Below are positions 3,123-16,549 of a stretch of 16,850 bases of DNA, one piece after another. The stretch is from contig NW_021825033.1 of NCBI RefSeq assembly GCF_006345805.1, forward strand, positions 1 to 16,850. The letters run 5' to 3'. Within the stretch, counting starts at the first letter, position 1. Every line of letters begins with the position of its first letter. Made by a program: the position numbers and the translations under genes. The stretch is from Octopus sinensis. Its lineage: Eukaryota. A model generated the notes under the pieces. It was not told the origin of the DNA. It made no database searches and saw nothing but the letters and a program-made list of their open reading frames with translations.

Positions 3123-3472
3123 TATGCGTAAGGAGAATGAGAAATATCAAGAAATATCATGAAATCACGTGATCTCACACCTGATTACCTAAATAAGAGG
3201 ACACAAAAATATAAACGTGATTTTTATGGAAATTTAACAAGTAAAAACTGTTATTAATAATGTTTTTCTTTTCGAAATTTTTCAGTCACATTCACTGTGT
3301 GTATATGTATGCGTGGTGGTGGCGGTGTTTTTCACTTCTTAATGATTTCTTATGTTTGAAATACATATACTTAAATTGATATTAGCTATGCGTGATTGTG
3401 CGCATGCGTGTATAGGTGTGCGTGTATATTTGTGTGTGTATGTGTTTGTGTGTGAAGATTGATAGCTAGAAA

Positions 3473-3567
<95 letters not shown>
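3473..3567 (+). repeat. (GATA)n microsatellite
   Basis: Read directly from the sequence. Confidence 0.97.
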
Positions 3568-4150: not shown

Positions 4151-4616
4151 ATATTACCTATCAATTCAACTCCTCAAACTCGTCTCTTCTCCTTCCCTCT
4201 TCCCCGCCGCCACTGATTTTATCGCTCATACGCTGCGAACCCCTTCACCAACTATTTCCTTACCAAGTATCAAACATCCCTGAACTCTCCATCTCTGCCT
4301 GCAACTGTTTTGCCGAACCTATGACAAAATGGGCCGACCAATACATGTCGATCTTCTCATTGCCCCTACCCCCGTTGATATCCACGAAATCAATCATAAT
4401 CCTCATTCCTTTGGCTTCTCGTCCTTCCCCGACCCTTTTTAGCTGTTGTGTCACCTCTTAACATTTTTATTGCTCCTTAATACTTTTTCCTTTTCCAGAG
4501 AATTTTACCAGTATCTTACTAATGTAGTTACATTTTAGTGTAGATGATCAAGTGTACTAAGATGTTTGTTCGTTATCATGAAATCCAAATCCTCACTTGG
4601 TCCGCATACGCAACTC

Positions 4617-4841
4617 TACTCTTTTACTCTTTTACTTGTTTCAGTCATTTGACTGTGGCCATGCTGGAGCACCACCTTTTTAGTCGAGGAAATCGACCCC
4701 AGGACTTATTCTTTGCAAGCCTAGTACTTATTCTATCGGTCTCTTTTGCCGAACCGCTAAGTTACGGGGACGTAAACACACCAGCATCGGTTGTCAAGTG
4801 ATGTTGGGGGGACAAACACAGACACACAAACATATATACAT

Positions 4842-4889
<48 letters not shown>

Positions 4890-5063
4890 ATATATATATA
4901 CGATGGGCTTCTTTCAGTTTCTGTCTACCAAATCCACTCACAAGGCTTTGGTCGGCCCGAGGCTATAGTAGAAGACACTTGCCCAAGGTGCCACGCAGTG
5001 GGACTGAACCCGGAACCATGTGGTTCGTAAGCAAGCTACTTACCACACAGCCACTCCTACGCC
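4617..5063 (-). mobile_element. tRNA-derived SINE family A, full-length copy 1
   Basis: Minus strand: A box TGGCTGTGTGG, B box GGTTCAGTCCC, CORE-like CCTTGGGCAAGT, central TA/TG microsatellite, 3' stem-loop CAGTCA-AA-TGACTG and (GTAAAAGA)n tail. Four further copies occur in the window. Confidence 0.9.
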
Positions 5064-6497: not shown

Positions 6498-6619
6498 CAG
6501 ACAGATAGGCAGACAGACAGACAGACAGACAGACAAATTGGAAAACGAACTGAAAAACAGACAGGCTGACAAATAGACAGACTGACAGAGCGATGGACAG
6601 ACAGGCAGGCAGGCAGTTG

Positions 6620-6709
<90 letters not shown>

Positions 6710-6848
6710 TAAAGACAACAGACAGAAGGAAAGACAAGGAGACAGACAGACATATAGACAGACAGATAGATAGGAAGTCAGGTAGACAGACGAACAGATA
6801 GGCAGACAGGCAGACAGACAAATTGATAGATAGATAGATAGATAGATG

Positions 6849-6885
<37 letters not shown>

Positions 6886-6886
6886 G

Positions 6887-6928
<42 letters not shown>

Positions 6929-7120
6929 CATACATACATACATACATACATACATACATACATACATAAATACATACATACATACATACATAGACAAACA
7001 GACGAGAGGACGGACACACAGTTGGACAAACGGACAGACAGACAGACACACACGCACGCACACACACACACACATACGGACGGACGGACGGATGAATCGA
7101 ATGACAGACAGACAAATAAA
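6498..7120 (+). repeat. Compound degenerate tetranucleotide block (GACA/GATA/CATA/GGAC)
   Basis: Read directly from the sequence; it explains the long YLSI/CMYV pseudo-ORFs. Confidence 0.95.
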
Positions 7121-7455
7121 CAGAGAGATAAAGAAAGAAATTAGGAAAACCTAGGTTGGTATGTCTGTTTGTAAACCTAAACAAAACTCATGGAGAGAGG
7201 GGGAAAAATGGTAAAGCGAGGATGACAGATAGTGAGAAATGGAGAATATTCTATAACGACACCTGATGTTTATTGACATGTTCATCGTTACAGTAAAAAG
7301 GTTGATACACAAGTTATATGTGAAAACAATGATATTGCAGAAAAAAGCAAAAAGAAGAACATTTTGGATGAATAAAAAGGTCGACATTGAATTATTTTTC
7401 ACATCAATCGACGGACACCATTTTGTACAGTTAGATTACGATTCCTATTGCTCCC

Positions 7456-7521
7456 GTTATTGCTGTTTATCCCAGATCTGCGCTGATCGAGCAGGCCAAT
7501 GATCAAAAGCATTCCAGTGAC
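7456..7521 (-). mobile_element. Short 3'-terminal fragment of the same repeat family as 3940-4150
   Basis: The minus strand reads GTCACTGGAATGCTTTTGATCATTGGCCTGCTCGATCAGCGCAGATCTGGGATAAACAGCAATAAC. Confidence 0.4.
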
Positions 7522-7530
7522 GTAATTCTT

Positions 7531-7607
<77 letters not shown>
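7531..7607 (+). repeat. (GATA)n array abutting the LINE 3' end
   Basis: Read directly from the sequence. Confidence 0.97.
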
Positions 7608-7976
7608 TGTTTCTTTATTAGCCACTCAGGGCTGCACACAGATAGAACAAATTACAAGGTAGAGCTTTTCTTTTGAAGGTTTAAAAAATTTTTTTTTTAA
7701 ATTAAAAAAAAGTTTCCATCAAAGGGATCGTAAAAGGGAGAAAGAGGACAAAAAAGGGGGTTAAAAAAGGGGGGAGAGGAAAAAAATTGATCAATAGGGA
7801 TCGTTATCACAGAAATGTCAATATGAAGTGTAAAGGAGGACAGGTGAGGTTTACCCGTGGAAAGAAAGCCTACGGAAAAGACCACGGTAACCTCGGTCAA
7901 TGAAGTCACATTTTATATTTCTTTTTTTTTTTTTTTTTTTTTGCAAATAAGCAATCTCTGTTTTCAATTTCTGGGT

Positions 7977-10900
7977 TCATAGGATTATGCTCAAGGTGGC
8001 TTCGTCATTCATACGTGCCATTCTTGCTACATTCACCCATCTTTTTTTAAAACATTCGCTAGACAAAACTTGCCTCTCTACTCTCACTTTCCTTTTCAAG
8101 GGTACTTGAAGAAGTTGATGAGAGATTGACCAGAGAGGAAAGTTTTTGTCTCCAATCCTTTCAGACGCGTCCACCAGATACATTCTTTCGCCATAGCCAC
8201 AAGGATGATGAAAATAGCTCTTCCTTCCCGTTTGAAGGAAGGAGGCGTGACAATATTGACGATAGACTCCTGATAAACCGACTCGTCCCACACGTGACAG
8301 CAGTTGTTCGACATAAGCCCACAGGTCGGAAATTGTTGGACACTGAACGAGTGCGTGCAGAACGGTTTCGTCGCTCTGACCGCATCTCGGGCAGGTCGGC
8401 CCCGTGTTTTTCTCGAGCCGTGTCTGTAGAGCTTATCCCGACGGGTAGCGCTTCTCGGTAGCACTACCAGGCCAGGATCTCTGGAAGTTGTCCATGGCCC
8501 TGGCCCGAAAGTCGTCCTGAACAGGCGGGTCAGGTACTCCTCGTCGACGTCCAGGTTCGCCCCGAGCTCGTCGTCGTACCTCCCCTCCACTAAACCCCTA
8601 TAGAATGCTGTGGTTGTGTTGAAGTCACTTAAGGTCGACCCAGGACGGCAGAGTTGCTTGAGAGCAACGCGACACTCGCGGTGCCATTCGCCCTTCCTCG
8701 GCCTCTTTTTGATCCACGACTGCAGTTCGGTCATGGAGACGAGCTGCGGGAAAGCGTGCCTCACAAACGGCGACCACACCTGTTCACCGTCGTCTACATA
8801 GAGCCAGAGATGTCGCAGTCTCAGCGCGTATCTGCGCATCATCAACCACGGCATGCCCAGCCCTCCTTTTAACGGGTGTTGACAGCAAATGGATCGCCTG
8901 ACCATCGGACGCATCCTTTCCACAAGAAGCGAAAGAGAATGCGTTGTAGTTTGGTGATGGTAGGGTCGGGACAAGGTACGACGGTCAGGCGGTAGTAGAT
9001 GACGGACGCGATGTATGTGTTCGCCACCTCCGCTCGACCTTTTAGGGACAGTTTCCTCTCGGCCCATTGCCGGGCGAGAGTGACCACCCTACTCGTTATC
9101 TCGTTCCAGTTCTTCTCCACTTGGAGGTCCGGACCAAACCAGACCCCGAGCAACTCAACCGGGCCGTCGGTCCAGCGTCCCACGACGGAGGCGCTGGTGG
9201 ACGGCATGAGCTTGCTTCTCCAGGTGCCTAGTCGCAAGCCCACTGACTTTTCCCGGTTGATTTTCGCTCCTGTCACCGCTTCGTAGTTTTTCAGTGTCTC
9301 GCCGACCAGCTCGATGTGCTCGTGGCTAGACACTATGACGGTGACGTCGTCCGCGTATGCAGACACGCTCGTCCCGCATCCCAATTCTCGCGGGATGCCC
9401 CTTAGAGTCGCCAGCTTCCGCAGTGTGGCTCAAGAGTCAATACGTATAGAAGCGCCGAGAGGGGGCATCCCTGACGGACCGAACGTGCAATGTCGAAAGG
9501 TCTCGATAGATGTCCATTTACGCGAATTACCGAACGGATGCCTCTGTACAAGGCAGCTATCCAGCCGCGGAAGACGGGACCGAAACCAGCCGCTCTCAGG
9601 ACTGCCTCCAAGTATCGATGGTCTACCCTATCAAAGGCTTTCGATTGATCCAAGTTGATCAGGGCCCCACCCATGCCAGGTTCGTTAACTACCCTGTCTA
9701 TGATGTAGCGCATCAGATGGAGGTTGTCATGGATGGTCCGGCCTGGCACGGCGCACGTTTGCGCCTTGTCGACCAGTTTCTCGATGACAAGCGCCAACCT
9801 CTTGGCTAGCACCTTGGCCAAAATTTTCAAGTCTGCATTAAGCAGAGTGATGGGCCTAAAGTTATCTATTACATTTCCCTTGTTTAGATCTTTTTTCAGC
9901 AGTGTTACGGCTCCTCGGCTCACAAAACCAGGAATGCTCCCGTTTTGCTGCCAGTTGCAGTACACCGCCGCCAAGAGATCTCCAAACAAGTCTGGCATAC
10001 AATGTAAAGCTCGTAGGGTAGACCATCCAAACCCGGTGATTTGTCCCTCGAGCATTCTGCCATCGCTTCCCGCACTTCCGCCGCCGTGATGGCACCTTCG
10101 CAGCACCCTGCCTTTCTTGTCGAGAGTCGTGGTAGGCTATGTAGGTAGGCACTGAAGTCCACCCTACGTTCTTGCCCTCCACTCGTTCCGAACAGTCGGG
10201 CAAAATGCTGCTGAAAGGCCTCACACATTTTACTTGGCTCGAGCAATTCGCGCCCCTGTTCATCTACCAGGGACCGAATGGTGGCTTTGTTGCCCTGTTG
10301 CGCCTCTGCCACCCGGGCCTCTCTCGCGGCTCCAACACCTTCGTTCCTTAGAGCACGCATCCTAGCTCTGACAGCACATCCTTCGTGTTTGGCGTTGAAG
10401 TGTTGGTCGAGGGCCAACCTCGCCGCCAAAACGTCGGATGCGATGCCGCTTCTAATTGCCTCTTCTAGCTTCTTAACTAGCTCACCCTCTACTCTATTTC
10501 TATCTATGGCTAGTGCTTTGCTGTACCTAATCGCTTCTGCTTTTACTGCTCTCTTGAGGGCAAACCACCATTTGTTGTTGATGATGGCTCCCGTCAAAGC
10601 CCTCTTTACTAGTGTGCTAATCCGGTCTCTGAAAACCTGTCTCGATGGGAAAGACGCGTTTAGTTTCCAGTATCCGGGACCCTGCCTAAGTGTCTTACCT
10701 AAGTCTAGCGTACATGTCACAAGTTTGTGATCCGTGTAGCTGACTATGTGGAATTGTGGACATCCTATGCTATCTCTATCTACTGTCCTACACAGTATCC
10801 TATCTAGATACGATCTCGACGACCCGATGCGGTTGCTCCATGTCCACGTTGGCGCATTCGGGTGGTCTAGTCGGAACCTGTCAGACAGTTGAAAGCGTCT

Positions 10901-11040
10901 GAGCAGGTCTCTGAGGCATTTGCATCCCCGTCTATTCCTATCTCTACCCACGTAGTCTACATGCGTGTCCAAGGTAGCATTCCATCCCCCACTAAGAGTA
11001 AAGGACGAGACGTTCCAAAAATCTAGACGTTGAAAGAAAT
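7977..11040 (-). pseudogene. LINE ORF2: AP-endonuclease C-terminal half, reverse transcriptase, CCHC zinc finger; multiple frameshifts
   Basis: EN motifs GGWNA, TWTWSN, SYLDRI, TDHKLV. RT motifs KSPGLDGLPYE, NFRPITLLNADLKILAK, LDQSKAFDRVDH, QGCPLS, YADD (9346-9357), GGLGMP. CPRC-x8-H-x4-C at 8393-8340 lies in an alternative frame. Stop codon at 7977-7979. Confidence 0.95.
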
Positions 11041-11042
11041 CC

Positions 11043-12327
11043 TTTTTGTGAGTGTGCCTCACTGCCACATGTATAGCATCGTGGCCCTCGACTACTACGT
11101 ATAACTTGCGGCCATCCTCAATATGTACGTGGGTGGGGATTTTATTTATGTCCTCTTGACTTATGTGGAAGAGGAACTCTATTCTCTTTCCCAGCCAGTC
11201 CTTGTTTTCCGAAACAACCGATATCTAGGATGTTTAAGTCCTCCATTTCGGATGTTAAGGCGGATGTATCCACAGTGTTGTAGTCACTTGGGGGACACCA
11301 CTGATATGACTTTCGTCACCTTCTTGCCGAGGTAACTCGTGTCAACGTTAGTTCATCAGAATGAAGGGTTATCGTTGAGAATTTCTTCGCCAACTCTTCA
11401 TTCTGAAAAACCACCTGTACGTGTGCGAACTTGTTCGCCCAAGTCACACAATCCTTGTATCCCCAGATGGGGCGTAAGCACTTTTCGACTTTGTCTGTGC
11501 TTGCCTTTTCTGGACTTTTAGTTTTTTTATTTGTGATTTTATATACAATTGTCTTTTTTTTCTCCTCATTCAGTATGTGCTGAGGTATGTGTAAGAGTAT
11601 TTTTCCGTTTTCATTTGTAATAAGGTTTCTGCAATCTTTAATCTGTTGTGTAGTAACGAAACTTTTGTTACCTTTTCTTTTATCGCCTCGGCGAGTTTTT
11701 TGTTGTTTTTGTTATTTGTTACTGCCGGTGGTGTTGGTGTTGATGGCAGGGGTGTGGGTTGTAGGTTTGTGGTTGCTGATTATGCAACTAGCAAGGGGTG
11801 GAAAATTGCCTGCGTAATTTAGTCCTGCATTAAACGCAAATTTCGGCATTTCGTTTGCTTGTCGTCGTTATTTTTTCACTTGTTGGTGGTGGAGTGAGCA
11901 GTGGTTGAAGGGAATTGTTGTTGTCGTCGTCGTTGTTGTTGTTGTTTTTGTTGTTGTTGTTGTTATTGTCGTTCTTGGTGACGGCGGTGGTGTTAGTAGT
12001 ATTAGTAGCATTGACGGCACGGTCTTTGGTGGCGGTGATGGTGGTGTTGGTATTGTTATTGGTGGCGATGTCTTTAGTAGGGATAGTAGTTTTAGTAGCA
12101 GATTCTGCCATGGTGTTGTTGTCGGTGTTGGTGGTGGACTTACTGATGGTGTTGACGGTGCTTGGCCTTGCGACCTTTGTTTTGTATTTGTTGCTGTTGT
12201 CGATGTTGATGGTGGTGGAGGTGGTGGTGTTGTTGTCAGGTTCAGCGTATGCTAACAGAGCATCCTGTTTTTCTGTCTCTGCGTCACACTTGACTTGCAC
12301 CTCAGCCTCGTGGTGACCAGTGGCCAT
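11043..12327 (-). pseudogene. LINE ORF1 (gag-like nucleic-acid-binding protein), frameshifted and C-terminally truncated
   Basis: ATG at 12327 (MATGHHEAEV...) and a Thr/Asn-rich N-terminus. Hand translation of 11520-11043 gives KVEKCLRPIW...HVQVVFQNEELAKKFST...YLGKKVTKV...KLYVVVEG and a zinc knuckle start RCYTCGSEAH at ~11081-11052. Confidence 0.75.
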
Positions 12328-12546
12328 TTTGGAAATAAAATGGCTAAATGAAACCACGAAGGCTATGAGAATTTTTTCTTTTAAATTTTGCCCACAAGGG
12401 GCAAAATTTTGTGTAGATATTTATCAAAGGTTTGCAGTGGATGTTGTTGCACAACTTTTAAACACAAATATTTGTCAATATACACTTTTGAACGTATAAA
12501 AATACCAACTTACGTGGAGCCCCATTGACTTGCGTCTGTCTGTCCA

Positions 12547-12724
12547 AGATAGATAGATAGATGATATATAGATAGATAGATAGATATAGATAGATAGATA
12601 GATAGATGATAGATAGATAGATAGATAGATAGATGTAGATAGGTGTCTGTAGATAGATAGATATCTGTATGTATATATATATATATATATTATATATATA
12701 TATATATATTATATTATATATATA
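12547..12724 (+). repeat. Imperfect (GATA)n followed by (TA)n, abutting the LINE 5' end
   Basis: Read directly from the sequence. Confidence 0.95.
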
Positions 12725-12935
12725 TTCTTTTATTCTTTTACTTATTTCAGCCACTTGACAGCGTCCATGGTGGAGCACCGCCTTTTAGTCGAACAAATGG
12801 ACCCAACGATTTAATCTTTGTAAGCCTAGTACTTATTCTATCGGTCTCTTTTGTTGAACCGCTATGTTACGGTGACGTAATCACAGCAAAATCGGTTGTC
12901 AAGTGATGGTAGCGGGGACAAACAGAGACACAAAC

Positions 12936-12978
<43 letters not shown>

Positions 12979-13139
12979 ACGGGCTTCTTTCAATTTCTGT
13001 CTACTAAATCCACTTACAAGGATTTGGTCGGCCCGAGGCTATAGAAGAAGACACTTGCCCAAGGCGCCATACAGTGGAACTGAACCTGGATCGATGTGGT
13101 TGGTAAGCAAGCTTCTTACCATACAGCCACGCCTCCGTC
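12725..13139 (-). mobile_element. tRNA-derived SINE family A, full-length copy 2
   Basis: Colinear with 4617-5063; A box TGGCTGTATGG and B box GGTTCAGTTCC on the minus strand. Confidence 0.9.
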
Positions 13140-13157
13140 ACACACCACCATAACGCT

Positions 13158-13189
13158 ATATATATATATATAGATAGATATATAGATAA

Positions 13190-13240
<51 letters not shown>

Positions 13241-13241
13241 T

Positions 13242-13299
<58 letters not shown>

Positions 13300-13527: not shown

Positions 13528-13718
13528 TTATATTTTTCGGCTTTGTATTGAACACGTATGTCCTTCACGTCTCCGTTATGTAATGAAAAGATTTGTCAAA
13601 CATTCAACGCGTTTTCTTATGTCCTATTTGCTGCGTCCCGTTTTCTCTTCTTGTTGGTAGCTTAACCATACAATTTTTCCCGTCCCTTCTATCTTTCCAA
13701 GTTAACAAGATTCCACTG

Positions 13719-13945
13719 CTTTATTCTTTTAGACGTTTCAGTCATTTGGCAGTAGCCATACTGGAGCACCGCCTTAATGGGCTTTATCCAAAGATATCGA
13801 CCCCAGGACTTATTCTTTGTAAGCCTGGTACTAATTCTATCGGTCACTTTGCCGAACCGCTAGTTTCCGGGGACATAAACACACCAACATCGGTTGTCAA
13901 GCGAAGTTGGAGGGACAAACACAAACACAAAGACATACACACACA

Positions 13946-13980
<35 letters not shown>

Positions 13981-14000
13981 TCACATACACACATACACAG

Positions 14001-14037
<37 letters not shown>

Positions 14038-14176
14038 ACGGGCTTCTTTCAGTTTCCATCAACCAAGTCCACTCACAAGGCTTTGGTCGGTCTGTGGCTA
14101 TAGTAGAAGACACTTGCTCGAGGTGTCACGCAGTGGGACTGAACCCGGAATTATGTGGTTGGGAATCAAGCTTCTT
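13719..14176 (-). mobile_element. tRNA-derived SINE family A, copy 3, lacking the first ~25 nt (A box)
   Basis: Colinear with copy 1 up to ...AAGCTTCTT, where an unrelated sequence begins. Confidence 0.88.
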
Positions 14177-14875
14177 TTATTCATTAAATTGGCCACAAGG
14201 GCCTTAAAAAGAAAGGAAGCTGCGAGCTGGACAAGGACATAATGAGATGAAATGATTGACGATATGATAATAATGAGGGCAACAGCAACGCCCGTCGATT
14301 GCTGTTTACCCGAGCACATTGTTCTTTATAAATGCATATTGAGGCAACAAACCTCTTACATAACAAAATATAAAGGAGGCAATAAACCTCTTACAAGAAA
14401 GCCACTGTGAAGCAGCAACCTCTTACAGTAAAAAAACAATAAATCAATACAAATGAGGCGCCAAGCCTCTTACTTTAATTGATCATAAGTCTTCCAGCCT
14501 GACTAGACTTCTCGCCTTGGTCAAACACCTGGACGATGTCAAGTCGGGCCGCTTCAAAACAAAGTCAAAAGTGTCCGCCGGGAAGGAGTTCATTATCCTG
14601 CACAGATCCGTTTCCCATATGACCTCCGCAGCCACCTGCGAAGGCCAGTCTGGGTCCTCCGTGCAGGACAGAACCCCTTCCCTTTGGCCTTTCCTTTTTA
14701 TCTTCTTGATGAAGTTCTCCATTGTCCCTCCCTTATGGAAGAGGATCACAAACTCCTCCTCCACACCATGGGAGGAATCTACCTTCGTTGGCACAATTCC
14801 CACAGAAGGTACTTCGGGACACGCCGGCAGTGTATCACAAACCTCCTGCTTGTTTATTTTGCTTTTGTCCTGCAT
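14177..14875 (-). mobile_element. Putative 3' fragment of a second, Tx1-related non-LTR element (130-codon open frame plus structured 3' UTR)
   Basis: GC-richer ORF 14875-14483 has weak similarity to the ORF2 C-terminus (NFIKKIKRKGQREGVLS vs NFFKY.LKRKVRVERQVLS). The terminus GCCCTTGTGGCCAAT...AATAAAAG resembles the main element terminus GCCCTGAGTGGCTAATAAAG. Confidence 0.5.
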
Positions 14876-14889
14876 CAGTATTGTACTAT

Positions 14890-14962
14890 GTGTGTATATA
14901 TATATATATATAAGTGCATGAGTATAAGTGTGCGTATGTATGTATGTATGTATGTATGTATG

Positions 14963-14991
<29 letters not shown>
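14890..14991. repeat. (TA)n and (TATG)n microsatellites
   Basis: Read directly from the sequence. Confidence 0.93.
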
Positions 14992-14994
<3 letters not shown>

Positions 14995-15027
14995 AATATA
15001 TTTATGTGTGTGTTTTTGTATTTAAAT

Positions 15028-15385: not shown

Positions 15386-15431
<46 letters not shown>
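15352..15431. repeat. (GT)n microsatellite between the tail-to-tail SINEs
   Basis: Read directly from the sequence. Confidence 0.95.
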
Positions 15432-15433
<2 letters not shown>

Positions 15434-15678
15434 CTTTTCTTCTTTCACTTGTTTCAGTTATTTGACTGTGGCCATTCTGGAGCACCGTCTTTAATCGAAC
15501 AAATCAATTTCAAGACTTATTTTTTGTAAGCCTTGTACTTATTCTATCGGCCTCTTACGCCGAACCGCAAAGTTACGGGGAAGTAAATACACCAACATCG
15601 GGTTGCCAAGTGATGGTGGGGAGACAAACGCAGACACACAAATACACACACATACACACACACACACACATATTTATA
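15432..15678 (-). mobile_element. SINE family A, copy 4 (3' half only)
   Basis: Matches the family A tail up to the central CA microsatellite; the tRNA head is absent. Confidence 0.85.
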
Positions 15679-15876
15679 TACTCTTTTACACTTTTACTTA
15701 TTTCAGTCATTTGACTGCGGCCATGCTGGAGCACTGCCTTTCTGCTTTTAGTCGAGCAAATCGACCCCAGTCTCTTTTGCCGAACCGCTAAGTTACGGGG
15801 ATGTAAACACACTAGCATCGGTTGTCAAGCAACGTTGGGAGGACAAACACAGACACACAAACATATGCATACACAT

Positions 15877-15914
<38 letters not shown>

Positions 15915-16070
15915 CGGGCTTCTTTCAGTTTCCGTCTACCAAATCCACTCACAAGGCTTTAGTCGGCTCGAGGCTATAGTAGAAGACACTTGCGCAAGGA
16001 TCCACACACTGGGACTGAACCCGAAACTATATGGTTGGGAAGCAAGCTTCTTACCACACACCCACTCCTG
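15679..16070 (-). mobile_element. SINE family A, copy 5, with an internal deletion of ~35-40 bp
   Basis: Colinear with copy 1, but ATCGACCCCAG joins directly to TCTCTTTTGCC, lacking GACTTATTC...TATTCTATCGG. Confidence 0.9.

Positions 16071-16375: not shown

Positions 16376-16549
<174 letters not shown>

Follow-up and report, generated by a model that had tools for sequence, protein, structure and literature searches.

A young L1-group LINE that probably targets GATA arrays in Octopus sinensis

Contig NW_021825033.1 of the 2.72-Gb Octopus sinensis genome was analysed over its entire 16,850 bp, referred to here as the window. It carries on its minus strand a GC-rich long interspersed nuclear element (LINE) at 7608-12546 that is flanked on both sides by GATA arrays of one orientation. 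Comparison of the genomic copies gives good support to the conclusion that this is a young LINE of the L1 group, likely of the Tx1 clade, that targets GATA arrays. We assign a probability of about 0.72 to the reading in which copies of the family occupy (TATC)n/(GATA)n with a single orientation, likely by way of an apurinic/apyrimidinic endonuclease (APE) that nicks the GATA strand and so provides the priming end.

TATC repeats at both ends of the family

The 3′ end of the window copy, AATAAAGAAACA at 7608 on the minus strand, adjoins (TATC)n directly without poly(A). The array on this side (7531-7607) holds 19.8 copies of the repeat unit, and an array of the same orientation with 25.5 copies (12547-12642) adjoins the 5′ end at 12546, a boundary accurate to a few bases as 29 other copies align from query position 1-3. 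An earlier note, made from the letters of the window, had described this arrangement and placed the 5′ end near 12546, and both descriptions held. TCTC immediately upstream of the 5′ boundary is common to many copies. The note also cautioned that a single locus is only suggestive, a caution we share, since the 5′ TATC of full-length copies is likely in part RNA-borne, as discussed below. The arrangement nevertheless exceeds chance: at least three TATC units within 25 nt upstream are found at 4.5% of the minus-strand positions even inside this GATA-rich window.

Searches of the genome with the 3′ and 5′ ends of the element returned 1,673 and 564 first-look candidates, which are not copy numbers, and 40 of each were scored. 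The set of 3′ ends was reduced from 182 to 141 by removing duplicates, the window's own copy among them, and both ends were in hand for 121 of these (for the remaining 20, the copy extended beyond the fetched DNA or its context was identical to another and was merged). Three or more TATC units lie within 25 nt of the 3′ end in 118 of the 141, and poly(A) is found at none of them. The phase of the junction is near-fixed, with GAAACATATCT in 94 ends and GAAACTTATCT in 17. The tabulation suggested in the earlier note, with 5′-truncated copies as the informative class, showed TATC upstream within 25 nt in 69/95 truncated copies and within 70 nt in 81/95, and none of the 95 has TATC of the opposite orientation on its 5′ side. 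The flanks, which could have proved heterogeneous, are mostly of one kind. Truncated copies that are not stacked behind another copy gave 46/63 (25 nt) and 53/63 (70 nt), and full-length copies 23/25 and 24/25, with one further copy set aside as mis-chained.

For comparison, the 25-nt condition was satisfied at 198 of 159,680 positions sampled from 80 arbitrary 10-kb stretches (0.124%), and the background beside the 70-nt counts is 0.235%, making the enrichment at family flanks several hundred-fold. Within these unselected 800 kb, TATC lay on both sides of 2/2 family copies and 0/3 distant relatives, and 2 of 27 TATC arrays were occupied. Stacking in one array is frequent, as 34/114 copies lie within 500 nt behind the 3′ end of another. 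Contigs of runs X1, X2 and X19 (X19 belongs to a second study) likewise contain loose ends at which a truncation point passes into GATA, evidence that assembly alone does not produce the pattern. LINEs have been called microsatellite-specific when more than 20% of their flanks are of one repeat type (PMC4494074); here the same fractions, 118/141 at 3′ ends and 69/95 at truncated 5′ ends, lie well above that value.

The window copy and its family

The features of the window copy, all on the minus strand, are as follows.

7531-7607: (TATC)n array that adjoins the 3′ end and forms the downstream half of the target; the junction is shared with 118/141 family 3′ ends
7608-12546: LINE copy of 4,939 bp, internally deleted (family about 6.2 kb), from family alignments
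7608-7976: T-rich 3′ untranslated region (UTR) ending in AATAAAGAAACA, without poly(A)
7977-11039: remnant of open reading frame (ORF) 2 with several frameshifts, comprising the C-terminal half of the APE endonuclease, reverse transcriptase (RT) with YADD, and zf-RVT, from Pfam RVT_1 and zf-RVT and tblastn to the open ORF2 of copy L063
11038-11042: candidate junction of an internal deletion of about 1.27 kb with GGA microhomology, from comparison with full-length copies
11040-12327: ORF1 remnant with a Thr/Asn-rich N-terminus, the half with the putative zinc knuckle deleted, from tblastn to ORF1 of copy L077
12328-12546: 5′ UTR beginning TGGACAGACAG, a start shared with the 29 copies noted above
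12547-12642: degenerate (TATC)n array that adjoins the 5′ end and forms the upstream half of the target, its last units possibly RNA-borne (inferred from copies L079 and L149)

The sequence missing at about 11040 relative to full-length copies corresponds to the 3′ half of ORF1 together with the endonuclease's N-terminal half, and the microhomology at the junction is 3 nt. No contig of four public runs spans 11021-11042, and either a real deletion or an assembly error could account for the gap. A folding test of the last 85 nt of the 3′ UTR gave no support for a hairpin (z +0.99).

Full-length copies measure about 6.1-6.4 kb and encode an ORF1 of about 700 aa (698 aa in L077, separate from and upstream of ORF2) and an ORF2 of 1,145 aa with APE endonuclease, RT and zf-RVT. 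The open ORF2 of L063 matches Exo_endo_phos (2.6e-15), RVT_1 (3.8e-30) and zf-RVT (3.1e-7) in Pfam, and the catalytic motifs of the endonuclease are found in open copies. The best solved-structure match of ORF2 is L1 ORF2p (PDB 8sxt, E 2e-53, residues 21-875), with R2 at E 5e-21. From its sequence, then, the family is a two-ORF APE/RT LINE of the L1 group, and to this extent the earlier description as Tx1-like stands. ORF1 of an open copy has a weak zf-CCHC match (E 0.0039; 17.7 bits, under the 20.8 cut-off). A CCHC zinc knuckle in ORF1 is a feature of the Tx1 clade. Among named proteins the nearest relatives belong to Argonauta hians (68%, with 38% of the query covered) and to a cuttlefish, and none of the protein matches in the homologue searches carries the Tx1 name. 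A quick tree built from 36 RTs of a chosen set of 37 (P0123 was too short), which held no labelled Tx1 or L1 references, groups the family with an Argonauta protein at a support of 99, and this pair sits in a group with a cuttlefish protein, next to fish and turtle proteins. Membership of the Tx1 clade itself is likely because of architecture and behaviour.

The family is young. When 52 copies were compared with the one in the window, 19 showed no more than 1.0% substitutions, and a second group lies near 5%. Indels between copies are frequent (median 17 gap openings per 3 kb). The 95 truncated copies share a common 3′ end and have 88 distinct breakpoints. Extrapolating from the two copies in the 800 kb of arbitrary sequence, we estimate several thousand copies, roughly 800-25,000. 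Nine copies (L126, L136-L139, L143, L144, L153 and L154) are 96-98% identical on the ORF2 side and differ in the 5′ UTR and ORF1 start (~73-74% identical), which suggests swapping of 5′ ends between subfamilies.

Other parts of the window hold further repeats. Four more GATA-type arrays (3456-3567, 6498-7052, 13158-13299 and 16376-16548) lie on the same strand as both flanking arrays, and TATC is about 15 times as dense in the window as in arbitrary stretches. A very abundant SINE (short interspersed nuclear element)-like repeat is present at 4609-5058, 12715-13157, 13706-14193 and 15422-16069, one of them directly beyond the 5′ array of the element. A 172-aa open frame without a Pfam match (14483-15001, minus strand) is part of an older high-copy repeat, with ~52-83% identity among the 150 that were scored of 1,871 candidates. 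A perfect 108-nt inverted repeat (332-439 / 1086-1193, spacing 646 nt), with further inverted similarity inside, is possibly a foldback or miniature inverted-repeat transposable element (MITE)-like structure.

Target, tail and the choice of site

The earlier note had left it open whether the family targets GATA arrays or makes them as a 3′ tail, and copies outside arrays uphold the former and speak against the latter. In L058 the element end is followed by a 14-nt duplicated non-TATC target, and in the full-length copy L124 by one of at least 90 nt; neither has a TATC tail, indicating targeting rather than a tail. At L124:1300-1593, ~150 nt of additional sequence separate the duplication from the 5′ end, possibly as a result of template switching or 5′ transduction. 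LINEs whose microsatellite 3′ tail is templated (CR1/L2/RTE-type) carry the repeat at the 3′ end whatever the site, next to unrelated 5′ flanks. The present family differs on both counts, having TATC in its 5′ flanks and tail-less off-target copies.

Target duplications are of varied length. L079 has a 17-nt duplication starting with a single TATC, with TATCTATCTATCTCTC between the duplication and the element 5′ end, and long readable duplications were found in L009 (~55-60 nt) and L025 (~120 nt, 72 exact). An exact test found duplications with at least 6 informative bases in 4/121 copies versus 0-2 in shuffled pairs, and a looser test found 32 copies versus 10-16 shuffled. An early 3′ variant was repeated within 60 nt upstream in 8 of the 74 copies that have one, some of these variants likely being assembly indels; this count rules out long duplications as the rule, most being short or absent. 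In L149 a TATC flank is followed by an inverted 5′ part of 2.2 kb, ~20 nt of inverted TATC-like sequence and the forward part, which picks up again after a further 9 nt. This inversion has the pattern of twin priming and implies that the RNA started in upstream TATC. Judging from L079 and L149, full-length copies likely owe some of their 5′ TATC to the RNA. Two copies (L146:5090-5140 and L129:6520-6560) have short pieces of element sequence copied again in tandem at their 5′ junctions, which suggests repeated RT template jumps.

In the mechanism that we favour, the predicted APE endonuclease would nick the GATA strand no more than ~3 nt from the junction, and the 3′ end released in this way would prime reverse transcription at the AATAAAGAAACA end of the RNA (target-primed reverse transcription). 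Cleavage of the second strand would be variable, usually close and sometimes 50-120 nt off, and transcripts may begin a few units upstream within the array, so that TATC would ride on the RNA 5′ end. Nicking of the GATA strand likely explains the one fixed orientation within arrays. We infer that target choice lies with the endonuclease, possibly with some help from RNA-DNA pairing of 2-4 nt.

A search with an Argonauta C-terminus revealed a young sister family with a similar 3′ motif and an ORF2 that is 69.7% identical (endonuclease 65%, RT 79%). Its copies, counted as rows that were not de-duplicated, have ATT at 36/42 3′ ends and 14/23 5′ ends, and TATC at 0/42 and 0/23. Copies of this family (L177-L216, e.g., L207:1880-7771 on the minus strand) include several open ORF2 frames of 1,142-1,150 aa and tandem stacks, and an ATT array of ~1.9 kb precedes the L207 copy. 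The betaB6-betaB5 hairpin of the endonuclease is nearly the same in the two families (SNR(S/I)GSS versus TNRIGSS). At the position aligned with L1 R155, Tyr is commonest in the TATC family (26/36 readable copies, with His in one), whereas Arg is found in 10/10 ATT copies and Arg or Lys in 18/19 homologues; the loop behind this position is also 3 residues shorter in the TATC family. In L1, R155 has been implicated in DNA contact downstream of the nick (PMC1950540). It is possible that Tyr in place of Arg/Lys, along with the shorter loop, underlies a switch from ATT to TATC.

Targeting could also be real and mainly driven by the RNA, with read-through UAUC beyond the RNA end AAAGAAACA annealing to any nicked GATA strand and an endonuclease of weak specificity. 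We consider this unlikely, though the near-fixed 3′ junction phase, the match in phase between the end of each sister family and its own repeat, and the near-identical hairpin loops of both families would all suit it, and the tail-less off-target copies are compatible with it since an annealed tail stays uncopied. The substitution of Tyr at the DNA-contact position speaks for the endonuclease instead, as does the Tx1L enzyme, whose specificity is established and which in vitro nicks almost exclusively its own target (PMC1950540).

Occupied arrays are long. At occupied non-stacked sites the two flanks add up to a median length of 350 nt in 62 of 68 rows (320 nt with all rows; six were dropped for zero upstream length from inversions or chain breaks), about twice the 184 nt (160-216) predicted by length-weighted sampling of 25 free arrays. 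Either growth at or after insertion or a steep preference for long arrays fits these lengths equally. The extra length, like the additional TATC between target duplication and 5′ end in L079, would be expected if the element made TATC itself, as a 3′ tail plus 5′-junction slippage, and inserted at arbitrary sites. This is very improbable given the tail-less L058 and L124, the 3′-end TATC of only 5-8 nt in several copies, some with a long upstream array (L072, L079, L115), and the old variant arrays (TGTC, TCCA, TACC) that are frequent in flanks and unlike a fresh tail. Insertion at random with later selective retention, recombination or misassembly at microsatellites, which the indel-rich assembly and the stacked copies might suggest, is just as improbable in view of the several hundred-fold enrichment, the 0/95 reversed copies, their very young age, the junctions in other runs' contigs and the absence of TATC at sister-family ends.

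Several observations weigh against endonuclease-led targeting as proposed here. The target-linked hairpin loop is the same at 7-8 of 9 residues in both families, and the sister family has ATT at 12/12 full-length 5′ ends but only 2/11 others, a difference in insertion geometry that may mean it inserts at array edges or carries a tail. Even the 70-nt test is failed by 14/95 truncated copies; the nine listed long non-stacked failures comprise three inversions or chain breaks, four degenerate or TGTC arrays and two true non-array sites (L125, L155). Copies were mostly picked by similarity to the window copy, and the unselected sample is n = 2. With 5′ TATC likely partly RNA-borne, the two-sided pattern of the window copy is weak evidence by itself, and the truncated copies carry the case. 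No empty allele was seen, the unique flank at 7100-7530 having no second full-length match in the genome assembly; contigs of the four public runs end inside the GATA array and none bridges the element.

A more tentative extension, which we regard as rather doubtful, is that the family is a self-feeding microsatellite amplifier that arose by a target switch both recent and mappable. Changes at a small number of endonuclease positions beyond the hairpin (Tyr for Arg at the R155 position and the shorter loop) would have redirected it to GATA, and each insertion would lengthen its array through occasional 50-120-nt target duplications and TATC brought in on the RNA. Landing sites would so become longer and more numerous, in animals whose microsatellite count is the highest recorded.

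Comparison with known systems

How APE-type retrotransposons choose microsatellites has been described as poorly understood (PMC3812793). Two young sister families in one genome, with 70% ORF2 identity, open ORF2 copies in both and different end repeats, amount to a natural swap experiment for endonuclease specificity, the mapping of which is relevant to programmable gene insertion. Since GATA arrays are common neutral sites and serve as markers, a LINE that splits and possibly lengthens them would also matter for cephalopod microsatellite evolution; the octopus simple sequence repeat count is the highest among 719 genomes (PMC6387519). Microsatellite targets described so far include ACAY, AC, TC, TTC and TAA (PMC3812793), TTCC/TTTC for crocodilian Tx1 families (PMC4494074) and TG for Togen (PMC4640811). 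A GATA target was not found in the literature searched, which leaves aside Kojima and Fujiwara 2004, the PMC4494074 supplements and Repbase, where one may be listed. The repeat annotation of Octopus vulgaris reports 13 recently active L1-Tx1 families, and the word "target" is absent from its main text (PMC13282606).

Close parallels are the teleost elements Kibi ((TC)n) and Koshi ((TTC)n) and the crocodilian Tx1 families ((TTCC)n/(TTTC)n), which are likewise APE-type LINEs in one microsatellite class with stacked copies between target repeats (PMC4494074, PMC3812793). With Xenopus Tx1L it shares two ORFs, an APE endonuclease and sequence-specific integration (PMC4494074, PMC1950540). The Tx1L target, however, is a DNA transposon, and the Tx1L hairpin loop has 11 residues whereas the TATC family aligns gap-free to the 9-residue loop of L1. 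Unlike Kibi, Koshi and the crocodilian families, ours has an octopod host and a TATC/GATA target that is not a pure pyrimidine tract, with TATC rather than (TC)n or (TTC)n as its junction motif, a distinction drawn from their published descriptions. Non-LTR (long terminal repeat) elements of R1, R4 and NeSL-related clades include Waldo, Mino, Dong and Togen. These also target microsatellites (ACAY, AC, TAA and TG, respectively; PMC3812793, PMC4640811) and differ from our family in motif and clade. Mammalian L1, whose ORF2p is the best solved relative, has poly(A) and a loose TTTT/AA preference, whereas this family lacks poly(A) and has a strict preference for arrays. GATA arrays are likely a new landing site for a known class of site-seeking retrotransposons.

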